From Escherichia coli (GTDB taxonomy: Bacteria; Pseudomonadota; Gammaproteobacteria; Enterobacterales; Enterobacteriaceae): 43,029 nt of DNA. Positions 1-43,029 of this stretch are shown here, piece after piece. Under the pieces are notes generated by a model that was not told the DNA's origin, did not search any database, and saw only the letters and a list, made by a program, of their open reading frames with translations. The translations under genes were made by a program, and so were the position numbers. Within the stretch, counting starts at the first letter, position 1. The number at the start of each line of letters is the position of its first letter. The stretch is from the NCBI GenBank assembly GCA_033901515.1, contig GCA_033901515.1_4984.1, one strand, 5' to 3'.

Positions 1-77
1 AGTTCCCTAAAACCCTCCTACTCCTGTAACATCATTTCTTAATAGCTTTCGAATGAAAGTAAAGGTGAAGGGATAGC
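1..77. repeat. Terminal direct repeat, left copy (identical to 42953..43029)
   Basis: Bases 1-77 (agttccctaaaaccctcctactcctgtaacat...aaaggtgaagggatagc) are repeated exactly at 42953-43029; the match stops at the window edges. Confidence 0.9.
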
Positions 78-296
78 CAAAGAGATAGCGCCGGATAGCG
101 CTGGATAGTGGGAGTGCGCCCTAGTGGGGAGCGCGCAGCGTAGCATAGAATCGGCACAATGTAAAGCACTAGCGATAGCACCACGGCGCACTAGGCGGCC
201 CGCTATGGCCCACACTATGGCCCCACAATGCTGGCACTGGAAGCCCGCAATAGGCGCACAAAATAAGCAAGACGGAGCGCGTCCCCACGGCCCACC

Positions 297-329
297 TAGT
301 GCCTCCCTAGTGCCTCCCTAGTGCCCCTA
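297..329. repeat. Tandem 11-bp repeat (tagtgcctccc x2 plus a degenerate third unit)
   Basis: Direct reading of 297-329; non-coding terminal region. Confidence 0.8.
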
Positions 330-440
330 CAAGGAGCGCATAGCAATAGGCATAGGATAGCACCAGCGATAGCCATTAAGCCGCGCAGCGAGCTTCTGCG
401 GCCCTCCTGGTGCGCCCTAGGCGGCCATATAGACGTCCAG

Positions 441-464
441 CCATCTAGCCATCTAGCCATCCAG
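441..464. repeat. Tandem 9-bp repeat (ccatctagc x2.5)
   Basis: Direct reading of 441-464. Confidence 0.8.
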
Positions 465-470
465 ACGGCA

Positions 471-481
471 CCCCCCCCCCC
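471..481. repeat. Homopolymer C run of about 11 nt
   Basis: ggca-ccccccccccc-tcc at 467-484. Confidence 0.8.
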
Positions 482-602
482 TCCTTTATACGCTAGACAC
501 CCCCTATGGGGGCAATTGGGCGCGTTGAGGGTGAGGGAGGGCCTCGCGTGAGTTTAATAAATTTCAGGTCCAGGTATAGACGTGCACCCAGAGCCCCTAC
601 AG

Positions 603-643
603 GGATACCCATGGATACCCCAGTAGTTGCCTAGTAGTTGCCT
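603..643. repeat. Paired short direct repeats (ggataccc x2; agtagttgcct x2)
   Basis: Direct reading of 601-647, just downstream of the last gene on the minus strand. Confidence 0.7.
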
Positions 644-649
644 AGTGCT

Positions 650-2659: not shown

Positions 2660-3268
2660 TTAAGCTCCCACCTTATTGAGTGCAGCTACAGCTGCGTTAA
2701 CATCCTTGAACTGGTTCCCAATGGCCTTGCTCTGCCATTGCCTGCGTTCCCACAGACCCCAGCACACTCTATTGCGCTGTCCATTGATGTGCTGGGAGCA
2801 GTCGAAGGTCCAGCGATTACGGCCCTTGTATACCCAACCGGCCCCTGGGGACTTCTGTTGGTACTTGCTAATGTAGCGCCAGTCCAGTACAGCCTTTCCA
2901 GCCGCTACATAATCTAGGTTTTTGAGATGCCGCTTCACGGCACTGCCGTTGAAGCCTGCTACACCTACATTATAAATGAAGTCTACTGACCCAATTAGAG
3001 CCACGTCAGAGAGCTGCATAGGAAGCCCATCAAGGGCCCTTGCATGTGCCCCTGCTGATTCTATCAGTTGCTTCTGACAATCGCTCAGAGAGGCTCTCTG
3101 GCCCATTTTGACGCCTTTAGTCTCCCCATAGCAGATTGTAGGAATGCCTGCACTGTCTTTGTATGCTGTAAGGCTCAAACCTTCATTGTGTTGGACTACC
3201 TCAGTAATAGCTCCGCCGAGCATAGTAGCCCCGGCGAGTGCCGCTATAACCCTAGTCCTTAAACTCAT
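2660..3268 (-). CDS. SAR endolysin (GH24 / T4-lysozyme-type muramidase)
   Basis: 202 aa; N-terminal Gly/Ala-rich signal-anchor-release-type segment RVIAALAGATMLGGAIT; catalytic spacing E-x8-D-x5-T in HNEGLSLTAYKDSAGIPT. Confidence 0.8.
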   Translation of the reverse strand: MSLRTRVIAALAGATMLGGAITEVVQHNEGLSLTAYKDSAGIPTICYGETKGVKMGQRASLSDCQKQLIESAGAHARALDGLPMQLSDVALIGSVDFIYNVGVAGFNGSAVKRHLKNLDYVAAGKAVLDWRYISKYQQKSPGAGWVYKGRNRWTFDCSQHINGQRNRVCWGLWERRQWQSKAIGNQFKDVNAAVAALNKVGA

Positions 3269-3503
3269 ATTTAATCGCCCCCTTACGTGCGTGCTCTTCT
3301 AGGAGCTTGTATGTGCGTCGTTTATAATATGCATTCCACGCCAGGGTTAGCACTGCGCATACCGTCGCAGTGATAAAGCTGATAACACTCCAGTTCCAGC
3401 TCATTAACTCCGCCAACCAGCCTCCTGAGACTGTAGCACCAGTAACAGCCGCCCCTGCCCGGGTAGCGAGGTCTGCCCCAACTCCATCTCCCACTTTAAT
3501 CAT
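3252..3503 (-). CDS. Holin-like small membrane protein (possibly pinholin-type)
   Basis: 83 aa; hydrophobic segment WSVISFITATVCAVLTLAW plus a weakly hydrophobic Gly/Ala-rich N-terminal segment; basic C-terminus; overlaps the spanin stop and endolysin start. Confidence 0.55.
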   Translation of the reverse strand: MIKVGDGVGADLATRAGAAVTGATVSGGWLAELMSWNWSVISFITATVCAVLTLAWNAYYKRRTYKLLEEHARKGAIKYEFKD

Positions 3504-3900
3504 CCTGCTGACCCTTCTTCCTAAACAGCTTACGAATCACCAGAATGGTCACTAGGAAGACCAAAGGAATGCTGGCCCCTGCTAATCCGGCGAGGATAAG
3601 GCTGTAACTATCATTGTTAACCACTTGTAGGCGCTCTGCCTGGATTGTGCCGGTACTAATAGTCTGCACTTGCTTCTTGCTAGAAGTATCCAGGGTACCC
3701 ACGTTAGAATCCTGTACATCAGTTTTGTTGGTGGTGCTGGAGTCCACCTTATTATTTAACCCAAGCATCTGCTTAGTATTCTCAGCACCCACCTGTGCAG
3801 ATACTTCCGGCTTAGAACCAACTAAGCCGGTAAGTGCAGAGGTCGCTGAGCAACCAGTCAGAGTAGCCACGAGTAGTAACCCAGCGACCAGCTTACGCAT
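3496..3900 (-). CDS. Unimolecular spanin (u-spanin)
   Basis: 134 aa; N-terminal lipoprotein signal with lipobox LTGC (MRKLVAGLLLVATLTGC) and C-terminal TM helix LILAGLAGASIPLVFLVTILVI followed by RKLFRKK. Confidence 0.7.
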   Translation of the reverse strand: MRKLVAGLLLVATLTGCSATSALTGLVGSKPEVSAQVGAENTKQMLGLNNKVDSSTTNKTDVQDSNVGTLDTSSKKQVQTISTGTIQAERLQVVNNDSYSLILAGLAGASIPLVFLVTILVIRKLFRKKGQQDD

Positions 3901-4082
3901 TAGCTAGCAGCCTTCACAGCGGTAATAGCTGTTTCTAAGGCAGCAATCTTGGCGTCGAAGGCGGCACCAGTCTGGGCTACGTCCTGTGGTTGTGTAAGGA
4001 TAACATACAGATCCTTACCTAGAATATTCAGCTGACGCAGTAGCTCCTGCTGTTGTGCTTGAGTTGCCTTTGCAATTGCCAT
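3900..4082 (-). CDS. Hypothetical protein (60 aa, Ala/Gln-rich, predicted helical)
   Basis: ATG at 4080-4082 with RBS AAGGAG; tightly packed between neighbours. Confidence 0.45.
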   Translation of the reverse strand: MAIAKATQAQQQELLRQLNILGKDLYVILTQPQDVAQTGAAFDAKIAALETAITAVKAAS

Positions 4083-4093
4083 GTGTACTCTCC

Positions 4094-4468
4094 TTATTCT
4101 TCCGCATCAGTAGCGACTACGAACGCACTTTGCAGTGCAGTGAATGATGTATCAAATGCCGTACCAGAGCCTTCACCTAGTGGCATACCTGTACCCGTAA
4201 GGGCAACGTAGCCAGTCTTCGAGAGCTGCGATAGCATGCTGAATAGGCGCGCCTGCAACGTCCCATCAGCCTTAAAGGCTGTGCCGGCGCGGGTGGCCGT
4301 ATAACCCTGGGATTGCATGTACGTAAAGAACGTATTCAGTGTGTCCAGAGCCGCAGTGCCGACAAAACCCACGTTGTAATCCGGAGATACTTGCTTTTCC
4401 AGATTCTGGGCCTTACCCACAATCTCATACTGTACATCTACAGCTTTAGCCGCGATGATTGATGCCAT
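4094..4468 (-). CDS. Hypothetical protein (124 aa)
   Basis: ATG overlaps the large terminase stop (TAATG); no recognisable motif. Confidence 0.5.
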   Translation of the reverse strand: MASIIAAKAVDVQYEIVGKAQNLEKQVSPDYNVGFVGTAALDTLNTFFTYMQSQGYTATRAGTAFKADGTLQARLFSMLSQLSKTGYVALTGTGMPLGEGSGTAFDTSFTALQSAFVVATDAEE

Positions 4469-6324
4469 TATCTTCTTCCTCTATGTTGTTTACCTCTGCC
4501 CCGGTTCTGCAACCGAGCCGCTACACCGCGAAGTCCCTTAGACAATTTGCTCTGTGCCCAATCTAGCGGGTTCTCAATGAAGGCCAGGGCCATCTTCTCG
4601 GACTCACGCTCAGCTACTACTTTCTCGTCTTCTACCAGGTGCCCATTCAGCACTGCCACCATCATAGCGATGGCGTCTGCCCGGTCATCCTTCGCTAGAC
4701 TTCCCCGGTCGTACGTAATACCTGCGAGCTGTGCGAACGCAGAGTATAACCATCGACGGTCTCGGGAGTAGAGCATACAAGTCCCGATATCATCTTGAAT
4801 AGCACGCTCATGCACCACCAGGCGATGTCGTCGAGTTACAGGGCTGATTGTGTCAATAATACGACGCTCTTTCTGCGTGGTGTTGTTGATATCGCGTACA
4901 CCGATACCGGCAAGGCGACGCTCCCTCAGGCGGTTCAGAATCAACATGGACACAGTACCGTGCCCCATGTTGCTCTCCACCACCATGTCAGAGATATCCA
5001 ACTCTACGCACAAATCAATGAGCTTATCAATATTCTCAGTGCTTACGCCTCCTTGGAAACCCCCAACGGAGAATAAGTGAATGTATGAGTTTGCAGCCCC
5101 ACCAGCAGCGTAGGACACTTCATCCCCACCACAACCCGCTGGGTCCACCACTAGCACCTTATGCTGATACGGTAGATGCATATCCCCATAGAATGCCGGA
5201 GAGTACATCTGCTGACCCATAATCCCCTCATGCTCGTGCTGGTACAAGTACCGACGGTCTGCGATGTAGGAGAAGGTCTCAGGTGAGGAATCTAGGCTAC
5301 CGGAGTACACAAGCATATCCGACAACTTGATACGGGTGCGCATCTGGTCAGACAAGGTTGTGTCGAGCATGTACTGCAGCTGGAAGCCCTCTGGGCCGAA
5401 GTCCAGCTCCTTCTCAATCAGCGCATCCTCGTCATAGCGACCGGTGTCTGTGCTCTCACCTAGTGTCCCGTCTACTCCGAACCCGGTACGTTTATAACCC
5501 CGCTCAATGAGCTGCAGTATATAAGGAGCAAGTGTACTTCCATATCGTTCTTCCATTTCAACTGACGGGATGCGCCCAGGCCACACTCGGACCTCGAAAC
5601 CACGCCCCGGCAGGGTTTTATAGATACTGTCCTTGGTCTGCGGTGTACCCAGGTACAGCGTATCCCCATGCGTACAGATAGCTGCGAAGTCTTTTGAAAT
5701 CATCAGCAACTGCTCACGCTGGGTTTGTGTCAAACCATTCTTAGTAGTCTCGATATCGTCTGGAATCAAGAGGTCAGCACGCTTACCTTGCAGGGATGCA
5801 GTGATACCGACACAGGCGACACTAGCAGACTTATCCAGCGGTTTCAGATCACAGTTGACATCATAACCTTCGAATGAAGTACGGTCCCCTCGAGTAGGGT
5901 CCGCCTTCAAGTAGCACAGTAGCGGCCAGGTTTCCAGCATACGAATGATTAAGTTCGCAACGTCGGACGCCTGTTTCTCCGCACCAGATACTATCAGTAT
6001 ACGGCAGGATTGGTCCTGGATGAGCCGCCAGACAGCATACAGCGCAGCCAGTGTAGACTTAGCTTCACCACGCTGTGCGGCTACCATGCGCTTCCTGGGA
6101 CCCTTCTGCATATACTCTGCGATATCGGCTTGCATGTCCGTCAGCGTAAAGCCCAAGAAGCGCATACCTATATATGCGAACTCCCTAAAATTGCTGAGGG
6201 TAGCCGCCATCATCATGGCGATATCCTCGCGCTCCTCTTTGGGAATACTGCGCGGATTCGCACTATAACCAGTAAGTTTCTGGTTGAGCATGCGCAGTCT
6301 TCGCGCAGTCTTCGCCGATACCAT
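4468..6324 (-). CDS. Terminase large subunit (DNA maturase B)
   Basis: 618 aa; deviant Walker A-like AAQRGEAKST; size and position after the small terminase match T7 gp19. Confidence 0.8.
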   Translation of the reverse strand: MVSAKTARRLRMLNQKLTGYSANPRSIPKEEREDIAMMMAATLSNFREFAYIGMRFLGFTLTDMQADIAEYMQKGPRKRMVAAQRGEAKSTLAALYAVWRLIQDQSCRILIVSGAEKQASDVANLIIRMLETWPLLCYLKADPTRGDRTSFEGYDVNCDLKPLDKSASVACVGITASLQGKRADLLIPDDIETTKNGLTQTQREQLLMISKDFAAICTHGDTLYLGTPQTKDSIYKTLPGRGFEVRVWPGRIPSVEMEERYGSTLAPYILQLIERGYKRTGFGVDGTLGESTDTGRYDEDALIEKELDFGPEGFQLQYMLDTTLSDQMRTRIKLSDMLVYSGSLDSSPETFSYIADRRYLYQHEHEGIMGQQMYSPAFYGDMHLPYQHKVLVVDPAGCGGDEVSYAAGGAANSYIHLFSVGGFQGGVSTENIDKLIDLCVELDISDMVVESNMGHGTVSMLILNRLRERRLAGIGVRDINNTTQKERRIIDTISPVTRRHRLVVHERAIQDDIGTCMLYSRDRRWLYSAFAQLAGITYDRGSLAKDDRADAIAMMVAVLNGHLVEDEKVVAERESEKMALAFIENPLDWAQSKLSKGLRGVAARLQNRGRGKQHRGRR

Positions 6325-6626
6325 TAGACAATTCCTTCTAGTAAGTCCTCAGAGTCTGAATCACTAATCTTGTTTAAAATCTCTTTCTTACGCGCCTCTC
6401 TGCGCGCCGCTAGTTCGTCATCAAATTCGTCGCGAAGGTCCTGCATCTCCTCGGAATCTGCATCCGCGGTGATATCATTATCCTTCAAGAACTTAGCAAT
6501 GACTGATTTATCTGCGGCGGGGAGCGGCACCTCGTCTTTTTTGGACTGCTTGATTTCTTCAATCAAGGCCTCAGTGAACATGCGGTGCAGCTCCGAGAGG
6601 CGACTGCGTTTAGCCGCCCCTGCCAT
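6324..6626 (-). CDS. Terminase small subunit (DNA maturase A)
   Basis: Tool ORF starts at TTG 6641. I prefer ATG 6624-6626 (RBS GGGGGA, overlaps tail-fiber stop as TAATG), giving about 100 aa with an acidic C-terminus. Position as T7 gp18. Confidence 0.6.
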   Translation of the reverse strand: MAGAAKRSRLSELHRMFTEALIEEIKQSKKDEVPLPAADKSVIAKFLKDNDITADADSEEMQDLRDEFDDELAARREARKKEILNKISDSDSEDLLEGIV

Positions 6627-8950
6627 TATATAGTCCCCCAAGCTTGTCTGTATACAGCGTAATGCAACGCACTATTTAGTAGGGATGTATAGTCCCCCGC
6701 TACGAACGCCTGACTAGCCTCATCCCACTTACGTACCACAGAGTAAGATGCAGCAACGCTGTGAACTTTATAGTAAGCACCTCCTACTAAAATAAACTCC
6801 CCAGCACTTAGTCCGGACGATCCCAATGCTATAACCGTCTCGTTTGCAACTATGCTGTTATATAGAGAGTAGGCTGGACCCCAACCGCTATTGGATGGAA
6901 GGGTCCCTTCCCCGCGTACGAAATTATCCTCCCCTACTGTAGCGGAGTACATGCAGTATGGCGCCTCTGCCTTAAACCTATAGAACCGGGTATTGCCACT
7001 GGATGGGTACCCCCTAGGCGTAGTATTGTATGGGATGCCGTTTGTTTGCACTCCCCGATAATATTGGCGCTCCATATAAGAGTAAACACAGCCATTTGAG
7101 GTCTTAGGCACATACAGGAAGCACCTACCGATATTCTCGTGTGTGTTCCTGCCTATATGTACATAAATCATCCCCCCGGTAGTCGCAATAGAATCTATAC
7201 AGTTACTGAACATGTTTGAGTCAATGTTGCAGTAACCGACAGCGTTCTTCATCCGTACACCTTGGCTTGAGGTCGAGGACGCCCCAATAAATGTATTAGA
7301 TTTAACGTTGACTTGATACGCAGCTGTGTTTATACGGTTTAAGAATACCCCCGAGTTTGAAAACATTTCGAACCTGCAGCCTACTACGTCTGCGTTACCG
7401 CAAGACTCTAGAAACACCCCCACGGATACGTTGCGAGCCACTACTCCGCTGATTACTACACTATTCGCATAGCCTTGAGTAGTGGATGAGCCCTCATTCC
7501 CGAAGATATCTATAGCATTGTCCGTAATATTCTGTAGGATACAATCTGATATGACTGCACCATCTGGACGCTCACACTGTATTCCTATGTACCCAGTGTT
7601 AGTCACTACACAACCACGCACTGTCAGATTAGAGCACCCATAGGTGCCTGCACCTGCCCGCCTAAAGTAGAGGCCCCCGGAAGGACTACTAAGTACGCGC
7701 ACGCCTTCACACACCACGTTAGTGGAGTCGAGTATATTAACGCACGTAATACCAGTACCAGCATTCTGTGCAACGTTACCGTCGAAGGTTATATTTGAGA
7801 TTGTGACAGAATCCGCACTGCCGTCCCAGTTGGTCAATATAGCCCCAGAAGAAGTTCCGCCAACACCGCCATTCAGGGTTATAGTCCCCCCACCGGTGAG
7901 AGTCACCCCAGAGCGTATATTTAGGGCGGACCGACCAGCAGATAGCTCACCAGCAACCGCCAAACTGTTAGAGTTTAGGGATACACGGTAATGCCCGGTG
8001 GCTAGCACCGTAGTAGGACCTGAACCTCTAACAGCATTAATATGTGCAGCATCCAGGGCAGCCTGCAAAGCCATACGCCAATCCCCGGTACTATCCGCAT
8101 AGGCTTCTGGATAGATGAATGGTACTCCACCTAAGTAGTTAAATCCATTATCCGAACTTAGCAGCCCTAAAATACTTGCAACTGCACCTGTGTCAACATC
8201 GGTATCTACACCAATAGTCATATCTACTAAGGTGCCTGCTGGTACAGTTTCTGCGAACGTCACTGTGCCGTTACGGATACTATAAGAATAGCCCGCGGTC
8301 TGAGTTACTCCATTTAACCTAATCTTAGCCTTAGTAAATGGTACTCCTGGGGTAATGGTGTTCGTGTCAGCTGGCACTACAGTCCACCACGGGAAGCTAT
8401 TAGTGTTAGCATTGAAGAACGTCTGCTCTAGGTTGGTAGTGCGTATATCCAGAGCGTCATCTGCAGCTTTGCGAGCAGCTGCCTCTGCGTCAATACGCGC
8501 GTCCAGGCGAGCATCCCCGGCATCAACATACTGCTTATTAGCAGCGTCGCGTGCATCCACAGGGTCACCCAGGTTAGTGATGCGGTAACGGTGCATGTTA
8601 ATATCGCCATAGAAACCCTCGATAGAGCGCCCTTCAACCAGCTCTTGAGCCAGGTGCAGGAACTGCGTATTCTGGGTATCTACGTTACCTTCAATGAACG
8701 GGGCACCACTAGCAAATTCAATGTAGAGGTACTCTCGTGCAGTCTTACGAATAAGAAGCACCACTGTCTCTGCAGACAGTGGGGAGTTCAGACGAATGTT
8801 GGTGGAGCTGGTCCAAGTGAAGGCTGTAGTCTCAGAACCATCTAAGTAAACGTGAATATAAGATTTATCCAGGTACTCGATATCACACTGGATATCCCGA
8901 GTACCTGTAGGCTTTACCGACTCTTGCCAGCTGTATGCCATATTAATCAT
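6626..8950 (-). CDS. Tail fiber / tailspike with T7 gp17-like N-terminal anchor and beta-helix-like body
   Basis: 774 aa; N-terminus (DIEYLDKSYIHVYLDG ... HRYRITNLGDPVDARDAANKQYVD) resembles the T7 gp17 N-terminal tail-attachment domain from memory; remainder is Gly/Ser/Thr/Asn-rich repeats (NITFDGNVAQNAG ...). Confidence 0.75.
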   Translation of the reverse strand: MINMAYSWQESVKPTGTRDIQCDIEYLDKSYIHVYLDGSETTAFTWTSSTNIRLNSPLSAETVVLLIRKTAREYLYIEFASGAPFIEGNVDTQNTQFLHLAQELVEGRSIEGFYGDINMHRYRITNLGDPVDARDAANKQYVDAGDARLDARIDAEAAARKAADDALDIRTTNLEQTFFNANTNSFPWWTVVPADTNTITPGVPFTKAKIRLNGVTQTAGYSYSIRNGTVTFAETVPAGTLVDMTIGVDTDVDTGAVASILGLLSSDNGFNYLGGVPFIYPEAYADSTGDWRMALQAALDAAHINAVRGSGPTTVLATGHYRVSLNSNSLAVAGELSAGRSALNIRSGVTLTGGGTITLNGGVGGTSSGAILTNWDGSADSVTISNITFDGNVAQNAGTGITCVNILDSTNVVCEGVRVLSSPSGGLYFRRAGAGTYGCSNLTVRGCVVTNTGYIGIQCERPDGAVISDCILQNITDNAIDIFGNEGSSTTQGYANSVVISGVVARNVSVGVFLESCGNADVVGCRFEMFSNSGVFLNRINTAAYQVNVKSNTFIGASSTSSQGVRMKNAVGYCNIDSNMFSNCIDSIATTGGMIYVHIGRNTHENIGRCFLYVPKTSNGCVYSYMERQYYRGVQTNGIPYNTTPRGYPSSGNTRFYRFKAEAPYCMYSATVGEDNFVRGEGTLPSNSGWGPAYSLYNSIVANETVIALGSSGLSAGEFILVGGAYYKVHSVAASYSVVRKWDEASQAFVAGDYTSLLNSALHYAVYRQAWGTI

Positions 8951-11900
8951 CTCCGAAGTTATTGATGATAGCTCGCGTAGGTGCGAATTCCTGGATTAAC
9001 GGGACCTGTTTAGTGAAGGTCTGGATATCCATATCCCCAGTAGCCAGGGCTTGCACTGCACCCAGCAGACCAGTGACGTAACCCATAGATGCCAGAGAGT
9101 GGCGCGGTGAGTCCCCAGTGAAGATATCCTGCAGAAGCGAGATACCGCCAATGGCGCTCATACCCATAACTGACTCAGCGACAAGTTTCTGAGTATCGAC
9201 CTCTTTACCGTCCATACCGTGCTTAGCCATAGTTGCTAGAAGCATCAATGGGAACTGGTATGCCATGATGTGTGCAACCCCAATCCACCCAGCATCGTTC
9301 AGCTCTCGGCGCAGAATCTTGTTGGTGGCAGCCAGGGCGAAGCTCTGGTAGCCGACAATTACTTTGCCGATAGGGTTGAACTGGGCGAAGTGTGAGGTCT
9401 CACCGGTACGTACCTGCTGTACCAGGTAGTCCATCATACGCGTACCTACCACCTCAACTTGCATTTGCAGGTCCGGCTGGAACATAGCACCAGGGTTAGC
9501 CTTGTTGGCCGCGATAGCACGGTCCGCAACGTCGCGAGTAAGCCCGAAACGTTCCAGACGCTTAAACGCCTCAGCGTCCCCTTTGAACATCCGCTGGAGC
9601 TCGTCCGCTACAATACCTGAGTTAAGGTTAACCTGCAGTCGATGTACCATACTCATTCCGTTGATGTGACGCGCAGCCTGTCCAATGTTCTGGGTGACGT
9701 TAAACCATGAGGCTTGACGGGTCAGATCCAAGTTATCGTCTGCATAGGTATTCAACCAACGGAAGCGCATCTCCTTCTGAATACTACCACGTAGGATTGC
9801 ATCCAGACGACTAGCCATATCCGGAGTGCGAATAGCTACGGAACCTTCTTTAAACCAAGGCTGCTCACGCATACCACGCAGCACTCGGGACATACCAAAC
9901 TCTTTCAGCGCTAGGGCGATGTCAGTAAGCTGGTACAACCCGGAGTTCTTGAGCATGGTAGCGTTGGCCATGTTACCAGCTGCACGGAGCAGGTCCGGCA
10001 TTTGACCGGCATCGGCTGGTGCCCCACCTAAGATAAAGTCGATGGTGTCATTAACGGTCTTCTCCCACTTACCGGAATCAGCCAGAGCGTGCTTGGACTC
10101 ATTAATCATCGTCTCTAGTGTTTTTAGGTCAGAGACTCCGGCATAAGCCATACCTACACGACCTGACATTCGGTTAGTGTAACCGTGCATAACCTTAGCT
10201 ACATCAGTATCCATCAGATCCTGCATGCGCATAACCTGGCCATCTACGATGTACTCTTTGTCCATGTTGAAGCGGGTACGTTGACGGAGGTTCTTAGCAG
10301 GCGAGGTAGCACCGGATTCTCGGACATTACCTGCCAAGAAACTCTGGATTGCACTCTCGTCTACGCCAGCATTACGCATAACCATGACTACTTCGTCGTT
10401 ACCCATACCGTTGATGAGTTGCTTCCACATAGGACCAGAAGCCGAGGAGCGCCCGTTATAGATACCGTCAACCATCTCCTTAGCAACGCGCTGAACAACC
10501 TCAGGTTCCATAGACGGGTACACATCACGCAATGCCTGGCGGAATAAATCTCGGTAGTTATCCAGGGAGCGACCGTTCGCAATACCTTGGCGCATCTTAT
10601 CGTAGCTGTACTGGCGCGGGAAATAGTAGTCTGATTTAACCAGAGTACCGTCATCCACTAAACCGGCAGCGGTCATGTGATCATGCCACTTACTGGCCCA
10701 ACCAGAGTTGCGATACGCCTCAACAAGCGGAACTAAGTCAGAGTCCGGCAGAGGCACGGGGCGTCCGTTAACCTCAGCACTGTATGCAGAGTCCAGGTAA
10801 CGGCCTAAGCGGTCTTCCAAGTCAGCTCGTGCTGCTCTGAAGTTGCTACGATGGAAGAAGCGGTCCAGGAAACCTACACCCTTATCCTTGAGGGCACCGA
10901 GTATAGCGTCTTCAACTATACTAGCACTAGCATCCATTTCCAAGGTAAGGTTACGCTTAAAGTCCACCACAGACGGTTTACGACCGCCTACAGCAGTAGC
11001 ATCAGATACTAGTAAGCGTGCGAGGTCCTCACTACCCTCTGCGATGTTATCATACAAGGAGAACATAGTGGCGAGCTTACGCTTAGCAGTGTCCATCATA
11101 GCTTGGGCCTGCAAGGCCTCGTTCTTAACTGATGTACCTGCCAAGTCCTGGAAGGACTCACTCCTGAAGCTCTGAGCTTGGTCTGCGTAGTCCTTTGCGG
11201 TCCACTTGACAGCGTCCTCGTACGCGTCCAGAACATCCTCCAGAGCAGACCCCTTGGTGCGAACCCCTAGGGCGTTCATGATGTATTCACCAATCTGGCG
11301 AAGCATGCTTTTACCAGTAGGGGATTTAGTTCTAGAGAGGTACTCTACCCACTCAGGGCTGTCTCCCAGCCCGGCCAGCATTTCGTGCACATCACTTGCA
11401 TAATACTTGAATTTATCACTAAGAGTTGAATCTGCTGCTATTGCAGCGCGCACCTCTTCCAGCTTACTGGCAATTTCCGGATTCTGCTTAATAGCTCTGG
11501 TGGTGGCAGCGTGAATCAGTTCGTGCACTGCTACTCGGCTAGTGTCCGCATCCATAGCACGCAGAGCATCCCCGGCAGTAGTCCAGGTACTTCCGTTCGC
11601 TTTCTTAGGGGCACGTAAAGATACAAAACCCCTATCAGTTGTTGATGCTGGTGAAAACCCGTAGTGGCTACGGTTAGAAGAACCGGCCACCAGTTTAAAA
11701 TCAATGTCCTGTACTGCATCACCCAGGGTGTCCAGGATAGCCTTCTGACCTTTAGATAAGTGTTCAGAGGTCTTGAGGAAACGGACTACATCCTGCGCTT
11801 TCATGTTAACAGCGGCGGTGTTATTTCGGCGAACTTGGATAGGTTCATCCAGTACCTTAGTGAGGATTGTGTCTCCCTCTCCTACTCCTGTAACATTAGC

Positions 11901-18361: not shown

Positions 18362-18922
18362 TTAAATCATAAAACGAGCACGACGAATCCGACGTGCGAA
18401 TCTGGTCTTGCTGGTGCTGTACTTCTGGTTACGCAGATGCTCTCGCAACACCAGGGACCTGTACCGCTCCGCCTCTGCAGCGTAGTTGGCGTAGTTGCCG
18501 TCACTGCCAAGGTCATTCAGGTACACCTGTGCAGCAGTGTAGTTTGCAATCCACATGGCGGCGTGCTCCGGAAGATCCTCAAAGTTGAGGTCCAGTACCA
18601 CCTTAATCTTAACGGGGGAATCAAAGTACTCATCCTGCTCAACCAGGTTGTAAAGATTTCCGTCACGTACGCCGTACTTATTGTCTGAACACGCATCGTA
18701 CACAGCCAATTGGTTCCACGGAATCTTAATAAAACCATCAGCAGTAGGGGTAACCTCTCGCTCAACTACGTTGAACCAATAGCCCGTACTAAGCAGTCCT
18801 CGGCGATTGCGCGCGAGCGCAGAACGTGCTAACCCCGCACTAGGGTTTGAAGTGTTGATATCCATAACGCGAGACTCCCCCAAGGCTTCCAGCGTCAAAT
18901 TAATGGCGTCTAACTCTCTCAT
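18362..18922 (-). CDS. Tail tubular protein A (gp11-like)
   Basis: Tool ORF starts at 19039 and would run through the terminator. I prefer ATG 18920-18922 (RBS GAGGA), giving 186 aa starting MRELDAINLTLEALGESRVMDI, similar to the T7 gp11 N-terminus. Confidence 0.7.
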   Translation of the reverse strand: MRELDAINLTLEALGESRVMDINTSNPSAGLARSALARNRRGLLSTGYWFNVVEREVTPTADGFIKIPWNQLAVYDACSDNKYGVRDGNLYNLVEQDEYFDSPVKIKVVLDLNFEDLPEHAAMWIANYTAAQVYLNDLGSDGNYANYAAEAERYRSLVLREHLRNQKYSTSKTRFARRIRRARFMI

Positions 18923-18966
18923 ATTTGTTCCTCTATTAAAGACCCCTAGGACCCTTAAGACAGGGA

Positions 18967-19003
18967 CAAAAAAAGCCCCCGGCACCCGAAGGCACCAGGG
19001 GCG
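18967..19003 (-). terminator. Rho-independent terminator downstream of the capsid region (T-phi-like position)
   Basis: Minus-strand RNA GCCCCUGGUGCC-UUCG-GGUGCCGGGGGC followed by UUUUUUU (plus A-run 18968-18974); about 12-bp stem with G-U wobbles and UUCG tetraloop. Confidence 0.7.
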
Positions 19004-23453: not shown

Positions 23454-23475
23454 TCCTACTCCTGTAACATTAAAT
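23454..23475 (-). promoter_or_regulatory. Conserved 17-bp motif also present in the terminal repeat; candidate phage promoter or end-related site
   Basis: Plus 23454-23470 tcctactcctgtaacat is identical to plus 16-32 and 42968-42984; minus strand reads ATGTTACAGGAGTAGGA immediately before the ATG at 23453. Confidence 0.4.
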
Positions 23476-33832: not shown

Positions 33833-33860
33833 ACTACTTATACCTCCTACACTGTGTACC

Positions 33861-33890
33861 TACATAGCGCCCTCTAGGAAGGCGCTAGGG
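33861..33890 (-). promoter_or_regulatory. Conserved hairpin element C, upstream of the DNA polymerase
   Basis: Plus tacatagcgccctctaggaaggcgctaggg; inverted repeat tagcgcc / ggcgcta; shares the CATAGCGCCC ... GCGCTA vocabulary with the elements at 41011 and 41805. Confidence 0.45.
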
Positions 33891-33893
33891 AAG

Positions 33894-34229
33894 TCACTTG
33901 ATTGGTGGAATATCAATAGACTCTAGCAGCGGCTGCTGCAGTAGGTAAGTGTTATACTCCTGTATCGCCTGCACCGCCAAGTCCCGCAGTCGCAACGCTT
34001 TGTTTACGTCCCAATCAGTACGAGAGAACACTGCACTGGGGGATACTAGGGAGAATGCCTCTGGGTTAAAGTGAAAGGTAGGTTCCTTTGATTCGACCAG
34101 CTGTATCATCGCCTCGCTTGCGTTACGAACGGTGTATACACCACCCCTATCCACACCGGTACGGTAAGCTGTCTCACGGGCTATGTCAGCATCTCGCCGT
34201 ACTTTATCACCAATTTTAAAATTACACAT
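33894..34229 (-). CDS. Hypothetical protein (about 111 aa) with N-terminal K(I/V)GDKV ... YTV module
   Basis: I prefer ATG 34227-34229 (MCNFKIGDKV..., RBS GAGGGG); shares an N-terminal module with the 36480..36968 protein. Confidence 0.5.
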   Translation of the reverse strand: MCNFKIGDKVRRDADIARETAYRTGVDRGGVYTVRNASEAMIQLVESKEPTFHFNPEAFSLVSPSAVFSRTDWDVNKALRLRDLAVQAIQEYNTYLLQQPLLESIDIPPIK

Positions 34230-36970: not shown

Positions 36971-38005
36971 TCAACCCTCCACAATATTCTCGTATCCACC
37001 CCAGTCTTCTACAACTCGGGTGCCTAGTTCAATCAGTTCTTCTTTGAAGCCATAATCAGAATACACCATGATGTATTCCGCCGCCCTTGCCGGGTTATCC
37101 AACACCCAACTAATCAGTTGCTGCTTAGAAAGCTGTGACACCTCCTTGAATGCTGCCAGTAAATGCGGGTCTTCCGCACAGGGAACATCTAGTGACATAT
37201 CAAAAGAATACGCAGGGGCAGATAACCACGCATCTGGTTCCACTACCTTTGGATCCCGCTCAATCGGTAGGTACTTGAACGTGTCTGCTTGCAGTACGCG
37301 CTCAAGTACTTGTCCAAGAATATTCAAGTCCAGTACCTCATCCGGGGTGTGCTCGTGCATGTACCCTACGCCTACGTTGGTGCACTCAGGAATGATGCCA
37401 ACGAACTCGGCCGAGTCAGTGTATACCCCTTTCTGTAAGTGCGCCTCCGTTCGTCCTAGTCGGGCCGCGAGTTCCTTTGCGAACGTATCAGAGCAGCAAC
37501 GCTGGTATCGTTGATGCGTAATGATGCCATCACCTCGGCGGTCAAAGCTAATCATTGCCTTGACCCCAGTCCAGAAGCCAGTATCGTCCTTGGCTGATGC
37601 TCTGCTGCCCTCGCAGCCTACTTCTTCATCCACGAAGAAGCAGTAGCGTCCGTGCACCCCACGCTTAATCATCTCCAGCATCAGGTAGATACCAGCGCCA
37701 CAGTCTGCACCTAGACAATCCGCTGCTTGTGGGTTGCGCAGGAACATGACGCCCTTGTTAGTAATTGCAATGTCCGGCGCAGCACTGCCTGGCCGAGCCA
37801 CCGTATCAAGGTGTGATGTAAATGCTACATCACTCTGTTCAGAGTTTCCGATTAGCACAAAGTAGTTACCGTGCGCATCCCTTACATAGTGTTCTGCACC
37901 AGCAAGAGCGCTACTAAGTAGCGGCTCAAACCATTTGGTACTGCCCCAGCTAGGTCGGTGCGTTGTTAAGATCTTTGTCAGTAGTTTCAAGTCGATACCA
38001 TACAT
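36971..38005 (-). CDS. Putative metallopeptidase, clan MH (M20/M28/M42-like)
   Basis: 344 aa; ordered candidate metal/catalytic residues SHLDTV, ADCGAG, FVDEEVGCEG, FDRRGDG, HEHTPDE. Confidence 0.55.
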   Translation of the reverse strand: MYGIDLKLLTKILTTHRPSWGSTKWFEPLLSSALAGAEHYVRDAHGNYFVLIGNSEQSDVAFTSHLDTVARPGSAAPDIAITNKGVMFLRNPQAADCLGADCGAGIYLMLEMIKRGVHGRYCFFVDEEVGCEGSRASAKDDTGFWTGVKAMISFDRRGDGIITHQRYQRCCSDTFAKELAARLGRTEAHLQKGVYTDSAEFVGIIPECTNVGVGYMHEHTPDEVLDLNILGQVLERVLQADTFKYLPIERDPKVVEPDAWLSAPAYSFDMSLDVPCAEDPHLLAAFKEVSQLSKQQLISWVLDNPARAAEYIMVYSDYGFKEELIELGTRVVEDWGGYENIVEG

Positions 38006-39714
38006 TAAGCTGCCTCCTGTTCTGTTTTAGCTTCTTTGTCTTCTTCGGCTTCTTCAGCCTCATCGTTGCCGAGGTATGGCTCATCCAGCACCGACGCAGC
38101 ATACTCCGTGAGGATTATACCGTGCACTGGATGGCTTTCTGTGTGGATGCTCAGAACATCATACCCTTGTGCGTACTGCATCGGCTCTTCATCATGCACT
38201 GCACCCTCTACAGCACAATCTGCTGCGTCATCATTAAGTACCCAGGAATTATGGTAGTCTGACCATGAGCAATTCCATGATGGGTACACTACGCTGCGGC
38301 CCACTACCTGTACGTAAGTATCACCGATACAGTGCGGGCATACATAACCACCGTCACAAGCTACGTACATGTCATCCTCGTCGAAACGTCCCCCGCACTC
38401 GATGCAATCGCAGCGACCGTCATCAATCCAAATGTACCCATCAGCGTCCTGTGCTTCATAGTCATAGCAGTCGCAGATAACGAACGCGTTATCCCCCTTT
38501 TCATCCACGCCATCTTGATTCCCGTCTAAGTACGGCATAAGCACGGCACCCTCATTCTCTGGGAGCGGAATACGCGCCAGTAGTGCGCCATCTAAGCAGT
38601 CCGTATCGCGCTCGTACCCATTAGCACGTAGAATGGCGTCCGCAGCATCCCCATATGCACGGACATATTCATTGGTTTCGATGTTAACGATAGCACGGGC
38701 GTGTACTTTAAAGTCATCACCAAAAAGTTCCCCAGTATACTGGATGAACAGGCGCAGATTATTGTCCGGCAAGCCGTGACTAGTCGTGGCATATACACGC
38801 ACCGGGCTAGCCTCGAAGTCGTATCCAGTCATGCAGCTACTAGGGCCGTTCTCGTATGCGTAGTACCACTCCCGCTCGGTCTTACAAAGATATGTAGTAG
38901 GCTCCACGTTCATAGCTTTGAGGTCTTCAATACATTCCCGGAAGTCTACACCGCTTCCGTAATAATTAGCGAGCCACTTGCCTGCCCGCATCTCTACACA
39001 GCGATACTCAGTAACAGCGGCGTAGTCTTTGTGTAATCGCGGCTGCCCCAGCATTACTACAGGCTCACCGTTGCGGAAGCCGAAACCTAGTGGGATTGCA
39101 AATCTAGACACCACGAACCCGTGCAACTGCATAAGCAAGGTTGCTGCCCAGTAATCCCCATCATACACACTGTACCCACGAAGGTATTTGGCCCGGAGGG
39201 AGTGAGTAGGTGTTAGCATCATCTCTTCGAACAACTCTATAGCCTGTTTGTGCACCTTGTATCCGGTAAAGTATTGGACCGCTTCTACTACACGTTCTGT
39301 AACTACGTCAGGGCCATCATAGAAGGTTCTGCTAGATAAACCGAATGCTTGGTCGCAGGTACCTGCACAGTCAAAGAGCTTATGCAGGAGAGTGTCACTA
39401 ATATCAACCGTGCCCAGCGGCCCAACATACCCACCCAAATCCTCTCCTGCAGCTGTAAAGTTGCCGAGTGCTACAAGATGCCCCGGCAGCACCCTTGACA
39501 ACATATAAAAGCCATACAAAAGCGCACGGGTTTTGTTACTTTGCACGCGCGCACGGCCTTGAGTTGATAGGTAGGGAAGCTGGCACCAGTAATCCCCGGA
39601 AGAGTACATACTATCCTTCAGTGGAAGAGCATTGGCCCCTTCTGGAAATTTGATGGTCCAACTCTCATAGGCAGGTACTTTTACGTCTACAGTTACTTTA
39701 TTAGTCTCTTGCAT
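38005..39714 (-). CDS. Large early protein of unknown function, Cys-rich C-terminal region and acidic tail
   Basis: Tool ORF 38005..40008 (667 aa) overlaps the 39761..40105 ORF by 248 nt. I prefer internal ATG 39712-39714 (RBS GGAGA), about 569 aa. C-terminus has CDCYDYEAQDADGYIWIDDGRCDCIECGG ... CDGGYVCPHC and ends EEAEEDKEAKTEQEAA. Confidence 0.55.
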   Translation of the reverse strand: MQETNKVTVDVKVPAYESWTIKFPEGANALPLKDSMYSSGDYWCQLPYLSTQGRARVQSNKTRALLYGFYMLSRVLPGHLVALGNFTAAGEDLGGYVGPLGTVDISDTLLHKLFDCAGTCDQAFGLSSRTFYDGPDVVTERVVEAVQYFTGYKVHKQAIELFEEMMLTPTHSLRAKYLRGYSVYDGDYWAATLLMQLHGFVVSRFAIPLGFGFRNGEPVVMLGQPRLHKDYAAVTEYRCVEMRAGKWLANYYGSGVDFRECIEDLKAMNVEPTTYLCKTEREWYYAYENGPSSCMTGYDFEASPVRVYATTSHGLPDNNLRLFIQYTGELFGDDFKVHARAIVNIETNEYVRAYGDAADAILRANGYERDTDCLDGALLARIPLPENEGAVLMPYLDGNQDGVDEKGDNAFVICDCYDYEAQDADGYIWIDDGRCDCIECGGRFDEDDMYVACDGGYVCPHCIGDTYVQVVGRSVVYPSWNCSWSDYHNSWVLNDDAADCAVEGAVHDEEPMQYAQGYDVLSIHTESHPVHGIILTEYAASVLDEPYLGNDEAEEAEEDKEAKTEQEAA

Positions 39715-39760
39715 TTTCTTTGTCTCCGGTGTTAGTAGTATCTCATCATACCTTAAAAGT

Positions 39761-40105
39761 TCAGCGTGCATACCACGCAGAGAGTTGTCGCTGCTTGTAG
39801 TAGGAGCGGATGGCTCTTCTAAATTGCGTGTAAGCTCCGCGATACCCATACTTCCGTAGCGCTGCAACCACATCAAATGCGATATGCTCTTGCAGTTTCC
39901 GCGCGGCAGGTTCAGTATACTCCCGGTAAGCTCTGAGCACAGTGCCAACACCCTCTCTTCTAACGCGGAGTAGTCTACGTTCAACGGGTACAATTCCTTT
40001 GAGTTCATTAGGTACCTCTTTGAATATTTCCCACGGGCACCCGCACTTGCCCTGCGTTTCTAGCAAGCGCCAGCACAGTAGCGCTGTTTCGTCTACTGTG
40101 AGCAT
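39761..40105 (-). CDS. Hypothetical early protein (114 aa, basic)
   Basis: ATG 40103-40105, RBS AAGGA; abuts the next gene. Confidence 0.45.
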   Translation of the reverse strand: MLTVDETALLCWRLLETQGKCGCPWEIFKEVPNELKGIVPVERRLLRVRREGVGTVLRAYREYTEPAARKLQEHIAFDVVAALRKYGYRGAYTQFRRAIRSYYKQRQLSAWYAR

Positions 40106-40770: not shown

Positions 40771-40984
40771 AAAGTTGTCTCCAGTCGGTAATAATACCGA
40801 GATTCACGGCATCCAGCAAAGTACGCGCCGCTGCTTCGGTATAGGTGTCTACGAGATCTAAAGGGAATTCCTGATTGGTGTCGCGGTCAGAGAATATCAT
40901 CACAGTATAGTTATACTCTGCGTGCACTTGATTGCACCATAAGGGCCAGAGTATATCCCCCGGATAGATTAGCTTTGCTTTCAT
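40763..40984 (-). CDS. Hypothetical early protein (73 aa)
   Basis: ATG 40982-40984, RBS GAGG; element A lies about 30 nt upstream. Confidence 0.45.
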   Translation of the reverse strand: MKAKLIYPGDILWPLWCNQVHAEYNYTVMIFSDRDTNQEFPLDLVDTYTEAAARTLLDAVNLGIITDWRQLYD

Positions 40985-41010
40985 TTGAAACCTCGTTGTT
41001 AACGGTATTC

Positions 41011-41037
41011 ACATAGCGCCCCGCAGGACGCTATAGG
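41011..41037 (-). promoter_or_regulatory. Conserved hairpin element A
   Basis: Plus acatagcgccccgcaggacgctatagg; minus-strand RNA CCUAUAGCG-UCCUGCGGGG-CGCUAUGUG forms a stem of about 9 bp. Confidence 0.45.
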
Positions 41038-41172
41038 CTTACCATTATACGTATTCTCCCAATCCCTCATAGTGCCACCTGTTATGGCGGCCCCGGGTTG
41101 GCACATCAAAGGCGTCAGAGTCGTTAGCTGCCGGAATCAATGCCCACCACTTGATAGCTTGAATCTTATAAA

Positions 41173-41748
41173 TCATGCCGCTACCTTCAAAGTTGCATCC
41201 AGCACAGCGCGTACATCCACGCCCTGACTGATAAGCATAGATACCAAATCAGAGTCGCTCACCCCAGTTTCTTTAGCCTTCTTGATAGCGTTTTTAACGC
41301 GCCCCAGCGCTTGCAGGCGCACTGCATCGGCATCAAGGGCATCATTCTTCACTTGTTCCGCTTCAGCAGCGTACAGGGCCATACAAGCGCTGTAGAAGCT
41401 GGCAACAATCTCTTCCCGGCCTTGCTTGTCAGCTTGTTTATAATCCAGACGCACGGCGTCCAGTTCAATGCCCAGCTTTTCAGCCGATGCATAGCACTTT
41501 TTAGCGTGGAATGCGTACTTGCCGGATTCCTTGTTGAACTTGATAGGCAGCAGTGTACGCAGCACCATATCGAAATCAGCGGCATCACTGCGCTGCATAT
41601 CCGTCGCCCAAGAAACGTTGCTACTAATCAGGCCGTGGAACAGAGCGCTGATAGTAATATTGCGTTTTGCTTCCACCACGTCGCCCAGCGCCTTGCGAAT
41701 GCTGCCAGCAGCGGTTAATTTGAATACTTTACCAGTTGAACGAGTCAT
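41173..41748 (-). CDS. Hypothetical early protein (191 aa)
   Basis: ATG 41746-41748, RBS AAGAGGTG; no recognisable motif. Confidence 0.55.
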   Translation of the reverse strand: MTRSTGKVFKLTAAGSIRKALGDVVEAKRNITISALFHGLISSNVSWATDMQRSDAADFDMVLRTLLPIKFNKESGKYAFHAKKCYASAEKLGIELDAVRLDYKQADKQGREEIVASFYSACMALYAAEAEQVKNDALDADAVRLQALGRVKNAIKKAKETGVSDSDLVSMLISQGVDVRAVLDATLKVAA

Positions 41749-41804
41749 GATGCACCTCTTTGATTGGTTGTTTACTTAATGATTTACTTAAAAACGAATT
41801 ACTT

Positions 41805-41836
41805 CACATAGCACCCCCCATAGGATGCTATAGGCT
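41805..41836 (-). promoter_or_regulatory. Conserved hairpin element B
   Basis: Plus cacatagcaccccccataggatgctataggctg; minus-strand RNA CCUAUAGCA-UCCUAUGGGGGG-UGCUAUGUG; followed towards the gene by a direct repeat TAAGTAAA x2. Confidence 0.45.
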
Positions 41837-41840
41837 GTAA

Positions 41841-42056
41841 TTAGCGTCCGAACTGCCCAGCAGTATACCAGCCTTGTGGCGCTCTGCTACTACCTTTTGT
41901 TTTGGTTTTACCGCGTACATTCGTGCTGAATGTAGCGGATTGCTTCATCCGCATATACCCAGCACGATTCAGCGCATCCCGGCGTTTTCTCAATTCAGGA
42001 CCGGATAACTTCTCCAGCCCAGCAAATTGTTGCGCTAACTTCTCACGATATTTCAT
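41841..42056 (-). CDS. First early gene, small basic protein (about 71 aa)
   Basis: I prefer ATG 42054-42056 with strong RBS GAGGAGG (the tool start is TTG 42071, inside the RBS); Arg/Lys-rich. Confidence 0.45.
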   Translation of the reverse strand: MKYREKLAQQFAGLEKLSGPELRKRRDALNRAGYMRMKQSATFSTNVRGKTKTKGSSRAPQGWYTAGQFGR

Positions 42057-42474: not shown

Positions 42475-42510
42475 GATTCAATCTAACTTATGTTCTTCGC
42501 GGTGTCAACT
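42475..42510 (-). promoter_or_regulatory. Candidate sigma70-type early promoter
   Basis: Minus strand TTGACA (plus 42503-42508), 17-nt spacer, TAGATT (plus 42480-42485). Confidence 0.25.
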
Positions 42511-42952: not shown

Positions 42953-43029
42953 AGTTCCCTAAAACCCTCCTACTCCTGTAACATCATTTCTTAATAGCTT
43001 TCGAATGAAAGTAAAGGTGAAGGGATAGC
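42953..43029. repeat. Terminal direct repeat, right copy
   Basis: Exact 77-bp copy of 1..77. Confidence 0.9.

Follow-up and report, generated by a model that had tools for sequence, protein, structure and literature searches.

Paired hairpins in the early operon of a KP34-like phage genome as probable RNase III processing sites of a T7-type, sequence-distinct class

The 43,029-nucleotide (nt) stretch of DNA analyzed here (hereafter, the window), contig GCA_033901515.1_4984.1 of the Escherichia coli assembly GCA_033901515.1, is a nearly complete genome of a KP34-like Drulisvirus (Autographiviridae) in reverse orientation, with about 90% identity to the Escherichia phages EC22.5-2 and Minorna. 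Its early region carries two copies of a conserved hairpin, elements A and B, which bracket a 191-amino-acid (aa) open reading frame (ORF) plus a 43-aa ORF. The evidence described below suggests that these elements are probably ribonuclease III (RNase III) processing sites that punctuate the early mRNA and that resemble the early sites of phage T7 in design but not in sequence. Positions 1-77 of the window are identical to positions 42953-43029; this 77-nt block is either part of a direct terminal repeat or an assembly overlap, and because of it a KP34-type promoter is present at both ends (19-34 and 42971-42986).

The pattern CCTATAGCRTCC-N(2-12)-GCTATGTGA matched the window only at the cores of A and B (41009-41037 and 41804-41834, respectively), and no match was obtained in 100 shuffles. 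The original prediction, made from the sequence alone, had described two near-identical minus-strand hairpin elements flanking the 191-aa gene, and this was borne out; the sites had been placed correctly, with edges off by at most 2 nt. Each element starts 6-7 nt past a stop codon, and the distances from the core to the next start codon, 25 nt for A and 56 nt for B, lie within the predicted 25-75 nt. The proteins flanking the elements contained no known domain hinting at a phage-encoded binding partner in Pfam and PHROG searches.

Element A consists of a lower stem (UAAUGGUA/UACCGUUA), an AG/AA internal loop, a C-G pair, a C.U mismatch, a 10-base-pair (bp) upper stem, and a UGCG tetraloop. Element B has the lower stem AAUUAC/GUAAUU, the same internal loop as A, A:U and U.G at base pairs 7 and 8 of the upper stem, and a loop of 4-6 nt. 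The stem had been predicted to be about 9 bp long (eight pairs plus a G-U), which was an underestimate: the upper stem comprises 10 bp, of which two are G.U pairs (alignment columns U19.G42 and U26.G35), and the paired flanks add a lower stem of 6-9 bp, giving hairpins of 61-63 nt. One pair of the stem, G:C in A and A:U in B, is a compensatory difference. Covariance model R1, built from the 40-copy alignment described below, recovered A and B as the only full copies in the window, each on the minus strand, and the plus strand gave no more than 14 bits (a partial match). The direct repeat predicted after B, TAAGTAAA x2, is real in the sequence; relatives have at most one copy, which marks it as a duplication specific to the window, outside the element. 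The AAGUAA of the TAAGTAAA region resembles the 3' strand of the B lower stem (AAGUAAUU), and this likeness could allow alternative pairing.

The motif itself is already known. Eriksson et al. (2015) described it as a "putative phage promoter" of Kp34-like viruses with the consensus AGCCTATAGCGTCCTACGGGGCGCTATGTGAA, occurring twice per genome in five genomes, and, drawing on phiKMV-like phages, raised the alternative of nick sites (PMC4411677). That motif has the same sequence and occupies the same two syntenic positions as A and B, but its annotation was based on motif discovery alone, and the hairpin, the lower stem, and the covariation were not noted there. The syntenic sequences in phages SU503 and SU552A likewise carry the annotation "promoter, discovered using MEME". 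Purified KP34 RNA polymerase, however, produced no RNA in vitro from a template with the motif region, and the true strong promoter of this enzyme was shown to be T(A/G)ATGTTACAGGAGTA (Lu et al., 2019; PMC6834552). A 2025 study reported four KP34 promoters per genome and judged the older "standard" KP34 promoters to be wrong (PMC11880802). In the searchable literature, the motif sequence was found only in the two Kp34 papers (PMC4411677 and PMC6834552). The sole published functional assignment of the motif, as a promoter, is thus refuted.

Absence from related genomes had been named among the observations that would speak against the original prediction; the element was instead found in Drulisvirus relatives and in other phage families. 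In Drulisvirus (KP34-like), it occupies the two early intergenic gaps flanking the 191-aa gene. In the Vectrevirus phages K1E and K1-5 (SP6-like), it separates early genes 5 and 6 at a site upstream of the RNA polymerase gene, and in the Bonnellvirus J8-65 and its relatives it precedes gp02, annotated as SAMase in sister records. It was also detected in the early region of Pectobacterium and Dickeya podophages (Phoria, Gaspode, PP16, and PPWS1) and in the pL operon of the lambdoid phages P22 (between orf87 and gene 17) and mEp043 (between gp45 and gp44). The core was further found in ST160 and UAB_Phi20 and, as a lambdoid variant, in prophages of 89 of 5426 complete E. coli genomes. All the annotated contexts examined (Drulisvirus, K1-5, J8-65, P22, and mEp043) agree: the element lies between genes of an early operon that is read by the host polymerase, and it is found on the sense strand. 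The phages with the core share no polymerase, and the genes downstream differ by lineage; the natural reader of the element is therefore a host factor. The pair had thus been rightly recognized but taken as a local curiosity around one gene, whereas the family across unrelated phages, the lower stem, and a third, diverged copy in the window (described below) had been missed.

A scan of bacterial genomes covering 596 Gb, in which about a thousand chance matches were expected, returned the real element in 1 of 120 loci; the remaining loci were chance matches or a coding motif (AYSSV.HMGYV-type). No K-12 strain was present among the 40 sampled rows of E. coli genomes with the lambdoid variant, and published K-12 RNase III cleavage maps are probably unusable here. 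Searches of the window region and of the K1-5, P22, J8-65, and mEp043 loci against Rfam yielded no family near its gathering score and only chance-level snoRNA and miRNA matches.

To assess covariation, copies were collected from IMG/VR with the two conserved arms, any spacer, and an exact core, and 40 distinct copies were aligned without gaps, anchored solely on the invariant core, so that the alignment was not fitted to the structure. The inner stems differ among the IMG/VR copies yet pair (AUCC/GGGU, GUCC/GGGC, CUACC/GUGGG, CUGCC/GUGGG, AGAUU/AGUCU, UGAUU/AGUCA, and others). The flanks covary too, with AAUGGUA/UACCGUU in element A of the window, UAGUAGCA/UGCAACUA in most A copies, AAUUAC/GUAAUU in B, and AGUAAAUA/UAUUUACU and GUGAUG/CAUCAU in other phages. 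On folding, the copies share one design, composed of a 6-9 bp lower stem, an R.A mismatch (a 2x2 loop, AG/AA, at this position in Drulisvirus), a C-G pair, a C.U mismatch, a 10-bp upper stem, and a tetraloop. Loops range from 3 to 9 nt among copies, and their sequences vary freely (UACG, UGCG, UAUG, CUGA, UUAG, UUCG, UCCG, ACA, and so on) while the stems covary.

In the 40-copy alignment, standard pairs filled 91.1% of the cells in the proposed register, compared with 24.6-44.1% in registers slid relative to it, and 12 of the 13 variable pairs showed changes on both sides, compared with 4-9 in the slid registers. The covariation score was 0.495, whereas the slid registers gave at most 0.141 and none of 500 shuffles reached it. 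The conservation of both sequence and structure that had been predicted was therefore upheld by the covariation check in related phages. The alignment contained 100 G.U cells; U19.G42 was invariant, and U26.G35 was present in 39 of the 40 copies. Pairing on the complementary strand would fall to 78.6%. The G.U pairs, the weaker pairing of the complementary strand, and the confinement of model matches to the minus strand indicate that the selected object is the sense-strand RNA, and we regard it as very likely that the element is a sense-strand RNA structure under selection.

The element was then compared position by position with the T7 site R1.1, using the uR1.1 numbering and reactivity epitopes of Pertzev & Nicholson (2006; PMC1540722). 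At position 4 of the proximal box, where a weak pair by the scissile bond is the rule, C7.U32 of R1.1 corresponds to C18.U43 of the element; at position 2, where G/C pairs block binding, A9:U30 corresponds to A20:U41; and at position 3, for which no rule is stated, A8:U31 corresponds to U19.G42. The middle pairs U12:G27 and C13:G26 have their counterparts in G23:C38 and C24:G37; replacement of U12:G27 by GC raises reactivity, and C13:G26 is retained. In the distal box, A14:U25 at position 1 (canonically A:U) is matched by A:U in B and by G:C in A, and U15.G24 at position 2, for which a "stringent requirement" for U.G is given, is matched by U26.G35 (all rules from PMC1540722). Above the distal box, R1.1 and the element alike have 2 bp and a tetraloop, with no rule stated. 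A20:U41 and C18.U43 are invariant in the 40 copies, although the search pattern fixed these columns; the columns of U26.G35, conserved as described above in this 29-nt-core class, were not fixed by the search.

The overall geometry also agreed with that of RNase III substrates. The lower stem of 8-9 bp, the 2x2 or 1x1 loop, the C-G pair, the C.U mismatch, and the 10 bp above them make a helix of 22 positions, or about two turns, and a two-turn helix (about 20-22 bp) is a substrate rule for RNase III (PMC1540722). In every canonical copy, the R.A and C.U mismatches flank a single C-G pair, forming at the predicted target an internal loop of the kind that restricts cleavage and leaves a 3' hairpin at T7-type sites. 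R1.1[WC] releases a 28-nt upper stem-loop (PMC1540722), and the conserved segment C18-A45 is 28 nt, the size of this product; the core would therefore end at the predicted scissile bond.

A covariance model trained on the five T7 early RNase III sites alone (R2) had its top match in the whole window at element A, with identical boundaries (18.8 bits, E 0.028). At the exact position of the element, R2 scored 18.1 bits in K1-5, 13.9 and 11.3 bits for A and B of SU503, 12.4 bits in J8-65, 10.2 bits in P22, and 9.4 bits in mEp043. In the reverse test, the best match of the element model in T7 bases 1-8000 was the RNase III site R0.3. In K1-5 and J8-65, nearly every early intergenic gap has a T7-type R2 match, and the element fills one slot in the series. 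The R2 hairpins, unannotated in the respective records, are located at 1499-1558, 2024-2090, 3226-3289, and 8368-8436 in K1-5 and at 2521-2584, 2918-2980, 3247-3308, and 3601-3664 in J8-65.

These results suggest that A and B are, with somewhat better than even probability, RNase III processing sites of the T7 type that punctuate the early mRNA with a sequence of their own. According to this model, transcription of the polycistronic early/middle operon would start at the sigma-70-like promoter (42508-42480), with a possible later contribution from a phage promoter (42986-42971), and each element would fold into a helix of about 22 positions and two turns, with the lower stem, the internal loop (R.A, C-G, and C.U), the upper stem, and the tetraloop. 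RNase III would bind through the proximal- and distal-box pairs of the upper stem and would cut on the 3' side of the internal loop, right after ...GCUAUGUGA. The upstream mRNA would retain a stable 3' hairpin protecting it from 3' exonucleases, and the downstream mRNA would be freed, its leader being short (24 nt for A and 55 nt for B). Binding and cutting by RNase III, the exact bond, and the effects on mRNA stability and translation are what we infer from the match to the T7 sites. The features of the window are summarized in Table 1.

Table 1. Positions of the hairpin elements, predicted cleavage sites, and other features in the 43,029-nt window
Feature	Positions	Strand	Basis
Element A, core CCUAUAGCGUCCUGCGGGGCGCUAUGUGA	41009-41037	-	Exact pattern match; same as published "putative phage promoter" (PMC4411677)
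Element B, core CCUAUAGCAUCCUAUGGGGGGUGCUAUGUGA	41804-41834	-	Exact pattern match
Element A, complete 61-nt hairpin	40993-41053	-	69.9 bits, E 3e-18 (covariance model R1); fold -26.5 kcal/mol, z -5.15
Element B, complete 63-nt hairpin	41788-41850	-	62.1 bits, E 8e-16 (covariance model R1); fold -22.3 kcal/mol, z -3.45
Predicted scissile bond of A, after ...GCUAUGUGA	41008-41009	-	Mapping of R1.1 boxes and 28-nt geometry; 24-nt leader before ATG at 40984
Predicted scissile bond of B, after GUGA	41803-41804	-	Mapping of R1.1 boxes and 28-nt geometry; 55-nt leader before ATG at 41748
191-aa early gene	41173-41748	-	phrog_5277, PHROG of unknown function; no Pfam match
Direct repeat TAAGTAAA x2, 3' of B	41783-41790 and 41771-41778	-	Sequence; one copy or none in relatives
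Third, diverged hairpin CC-UAGCGCCUUC-CUA-GAGGGCGCUA-UG	33849-33903	-	R2 10.8 bits; fold -24.9 kcal/mol, z -2.15
Tentative T7-like hairpin CUUAAGGGUCC-UAG-GGGGUCUUUAAU	18918-18975	-	R2 15.1 bits, E 0.3, second-best match in window
Sigma-70-like early promoter TTGACA-17-TAGATT, upstream of early operon	42480-42508	-	Promoter scan; matches "host promoter" (PMC4411677, Table 3)
KP34 RNA polymerase strong promoter TGATGTTACAGGAGTA, exact 16-nt copies	19-34, 11883-11898, 23457-23472, 42971-42986	-	Pattern search; PMC6834552
344-aa protein, early/middle region	36971-38005	-	Peptidase_M28 match, E 5.5e-5
667-aa protein, early/middle region	38005-40008	-	phrog_6980 (unknown function); no Pfam domain

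Several points weigh against assigning the elements to RNase III. Literature searches for RNA ends or transcriptomes of these phages, including Drulisvirus, and for RNase III sites of SP6 or K1-5 returned nothing relevant. The matches to the T7 model are individually weak, and element B of the window fails the threshold of E<=10. Copy A has G:C, not A:U, at position 1 of the distal box, and in the uR1.1 minimal substrate all distal-box substitutions reduced reactivity at least 5-fold (PMC1540722). The canonical distal box is missing in T7 R0.5 itself, and the distal-box rules are therefore not absolute. The lambdoid/P22 copies have an 11-bp upper stem with A:U and U.G at base pairs 9-10, 2 bp higher, so that the register and the predicted cut would shift. 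The core is conserved beyond the known recognition needs of RNase III, which may leave room for another factor, and its invariance across families is partly an ascertainment artefact of scans that required the exact core. The RNase III of Klebsiella was assumed to be equivalent to the E. coli enzyme.

An alternative that we consider unlikely but deserving of weight is a structured RNA that acts without RNase III cleavage, for instance as a 3' stabilizer hairpin produced by other nucleases, as a site that RNase III or a different double-stranded-RNA-binding protein occupies but does not cut, or as an operator for a host RNA-binding protein reading the conserved non-Watson-Crick module RCC...GUGA. 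This would be in line with the well-supported RNA structure and strand specificity, the conservation of the core in excess of what RNase III is known to need, and the low scores of element B and the lambdoid copies with the T7 model, and at some motifs E. coli RNase III is known to bind but not cleave (PMC1540722). On the other hand, the element matches R1.1 in exact register at the proximal, middle, and distal positions, the C.U at position 4 is the cleavable state in R1.1, the T7-only model recovers the element in five lineages, and no data suggest another factor, the loop sequence being variable. A primary role in recombination, in which the roughly 30-nt core marks cassette boundaries and promotes the gain, loss, and exchange of early genes within and among phages with any RNA function secondary, as has been suggested for the promoter-stem-loop cassettes (PeSL) of T4-type phages, appears improbable. 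It would fit a contig with a single hybrid copy and no 191-aa cassette, a Drulisvirus contig with three copies, the variable gene content between or near the copies (two extra genes in SU503), and the presence of the core in unrelated phage families, but it does not account for the compensated substitutions in the two stems, for the conserved G.U pairs, the bias toward one strand, and the self-pairing flanks, or for the retention of the element in the single-copy phages K1-5, J8-65, and P22. Recombination between copies could be a side effect or a second role. A combined and rather speculative version, which we do not expect to hold, regards the 29-nt core as a portable punctuation module that serves both as a processing signal for RNase III or another host factor and as a recombination hotspot for the gain, loss, and exchange of early cassettes, both within and among enterobacterial phage families that are otherwise unrelated (Autographiviridae and lambdoid/P22-like phages).

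Readings at the level of DNA or transcription were each assigned a very low probability. A dimeric-protein operator, a cruciform, or a strand-specific nick is highly improbable: the sequence is palindromic and nick sites were proposed from the phiKMV-like analogy (PMC4411677), but the compensatory changes restore pairing and not a fixed protein-contact sequence, on the opposite strand the two conserved G.U pairs would become A.C mismatches, the loop ranges from 3 to 9 nt, the orientation always follows transcription, and the presence in lambdoid prophages makes a phiKMV-type nick unlikely. The annotated stretches around the element in P22 and mEp043 contain no phage RNA polymerase gene. P22 and the other temperate lambdoid phages are not known to encode such a polymerase. 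The CTATAG within the element resembles positions -5 to +1 of the T7 and SP6 promoters, which would favor a promoter for a phage single-subunit RNA polymerase, perhaps one requiring supercoiling or an extruded DNA hairpin as for the virion RNA polymerase of phage N4. The negative test was run on a linear PCR template and leaves a supercoiling requirement possible (PMC6834552). Even so, we give the promoter almost no credence: purified KP34 RNA polymerase made no RNA from the region (PMC6834552), T(A/G)ATGTTACAGGAGTA is unrelated and has four exact copies elsewhere in the window but none at the elements, carriers of the element include P22 and other lambdoid phages as well as SP6-like and T7-like phages with other polymerase specificities, and the covariation extends to flanks that a promoter would not need. 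The phage promoter was rejected because of the failure in vitro, the location of the true promoters elsewhere, and the occurrence of the element in phages without the polymerase. Among the functions originally offered, RNA processing was thus strengthened by the covariation, the match to T7 sites, and the T7-only model, whereas the non-canonical promoter did not survive the in vitro result with KP34 RNA polymerase. An intrinsic terminator or attenuator subdividing the early operon has a negligible probability; a stable GC-containing hairpin located 6-7 nt past a stop codon would suit it, but the lower stem and the internal loop are not terminator features. It was rejected because the stem is followed by GUGAAUACCG (A) or GUGAAGUAAU (B) with no U-tract and a terminator scan was empty at both elements. 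An antitermination hairpin of the lambda nut/boxB type was also rejected, as a conserved loop contacted by N would be expected, but the loop varies freely.

The number and surroundings of the copies differ among the loci collected. The contig IMGVR_UViG_3300045988_020859 has one copy at about 9143, flanked by B-type sequence on the 5' side and A-type sequence on the 3' side, and lacks the 191-aa cassette; in these hybrid flanks the lower stem is lost. This state looks like a deletion via recombination between the two copies. A Drulisvirus contig has three copies (6810, 6898, and 7854), and the extra copy has its own lower stem, GGUUAAU/AUUAACC. In SU503, two extra small genes lie between B and A, and a T7-type hairpin is present between these genes at 1873-1936 on the minus strand (23.4 bits with the T7 model, -29 kcal/mol, z -5.9), as if the inserted cassettes brought their own processing hairpin. 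In lambda, the core was searched for and is absent, and only the 3' flank is shared: positions 33983-34011 (29 nt) match the 3' flank of the lambdoid element exactly, and at about 34000-34035 on the minus strand, between ral and ea10, an unrelated hairpin (GUGUAUUCAUU-CCAAC-GAGUGAAUACAC) replaces the core. The ral/ea10 slot is conserved in lambda with its occupant replaced.

Two further hairpins in the window resembled the elements. The third, diverged hairpin at 33849-33903, described neither in the original prediction nor in the 2015 paper, is intergenic, with a 116-aa ORF on one side and the downstream gene for DNA polymerase A (Pfam DNA_pol_A match) on the other. It has the C.U / C-G / mismatch junction of A and B with U.G at base pair 8, is kept in five other Drulisvirus loci with changes in the loop only, and is probably to be counted among the processing sites. 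The tentative hairpin at 18918-18975 has the same architecture with U.G at base pair 8, and the energy of its 86-nt fold is unexceptional (z +0.46). Immediately 5' of it is a hairpin with a trailing U-run (UUCGGGUGCCGGGGGCUUUUUUU), similar to the capsid-gene terminator reported in Kp34-like phages (PMC4411677, Table 3).

No other repeat in KP34-like genomes is as conspicuous as the motif, which GenBank records still call a promoter. If correct, the assignment to RNase III would give a function to a motif orphaned by the failed in vitro promoter test, and the elements would form a second, sequence-distinct class of T7-style RNase III sites, common to virulent podophages and temperate lambdoid phages of Enterobacterales. 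This class is absent from Rfam and would be useful for phage annotation and for understanding the separation and stabilization of early mRNAs. In the engineering of therapeutic phages of Klebsiella and E. coli and of expression systems based on KP34 RNA polymerase, removing or moving the hairpins could alter early gene expression. The prediction is specific to one phosphodiester bond and to particular base pairs.

Among known systems, the early RNase III sites of T7 (R0.3, R0.5, R1, R1.1, and R1.3) are the closest. Like the element, they are intercistronic in an early operon read by host polymerase, fold into a lower stem, an internal loop, an upper stem of about 10 bp, and a tetraloop over about two turns, have C.U by the upper stem, with A:U and U.G at position 2 of the proximal and distal boxes, respectively, and place 28 nt between two potential scissile bonds. 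The T7 site R1 and the B-type copies both contain CAUC-UGCG-GGUG, and the model of each family finds the sites of the other. However, the core differs (CCUAUAGC...GCUAUGUGA in the element, CUCAAGGUC...GGCCUUUAUGAUU in T7), the internal loop of the element is smaller and more symmetric, and its loops are mostly UNCG-like, in contrast to GNRA in T7; cleavage is established for the T7 sites and predicted from sequence for the element, which also occurs in temperate lambdoid phages. The RNase III sites of lambda, in the N leader and sib, are hairpins sensitive to this enzyme within early-left transcripts of lambdoid phages. Copies of the element in lambdoid phages and P22 lie likewise in the pL operon but differ from the lambda sites in sequence and position. 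The promoter-stem-loop cassettes (PeSL) of T4-type phages are repeated intergenic stem-loops that border variable early-gene cassettes and are able to recombine, and the hybrid single-copy contig fits this pattern of cassette recombination. Unlike PeSL, the element has no promoter tied to it, and its structure itself appears to be under selection.

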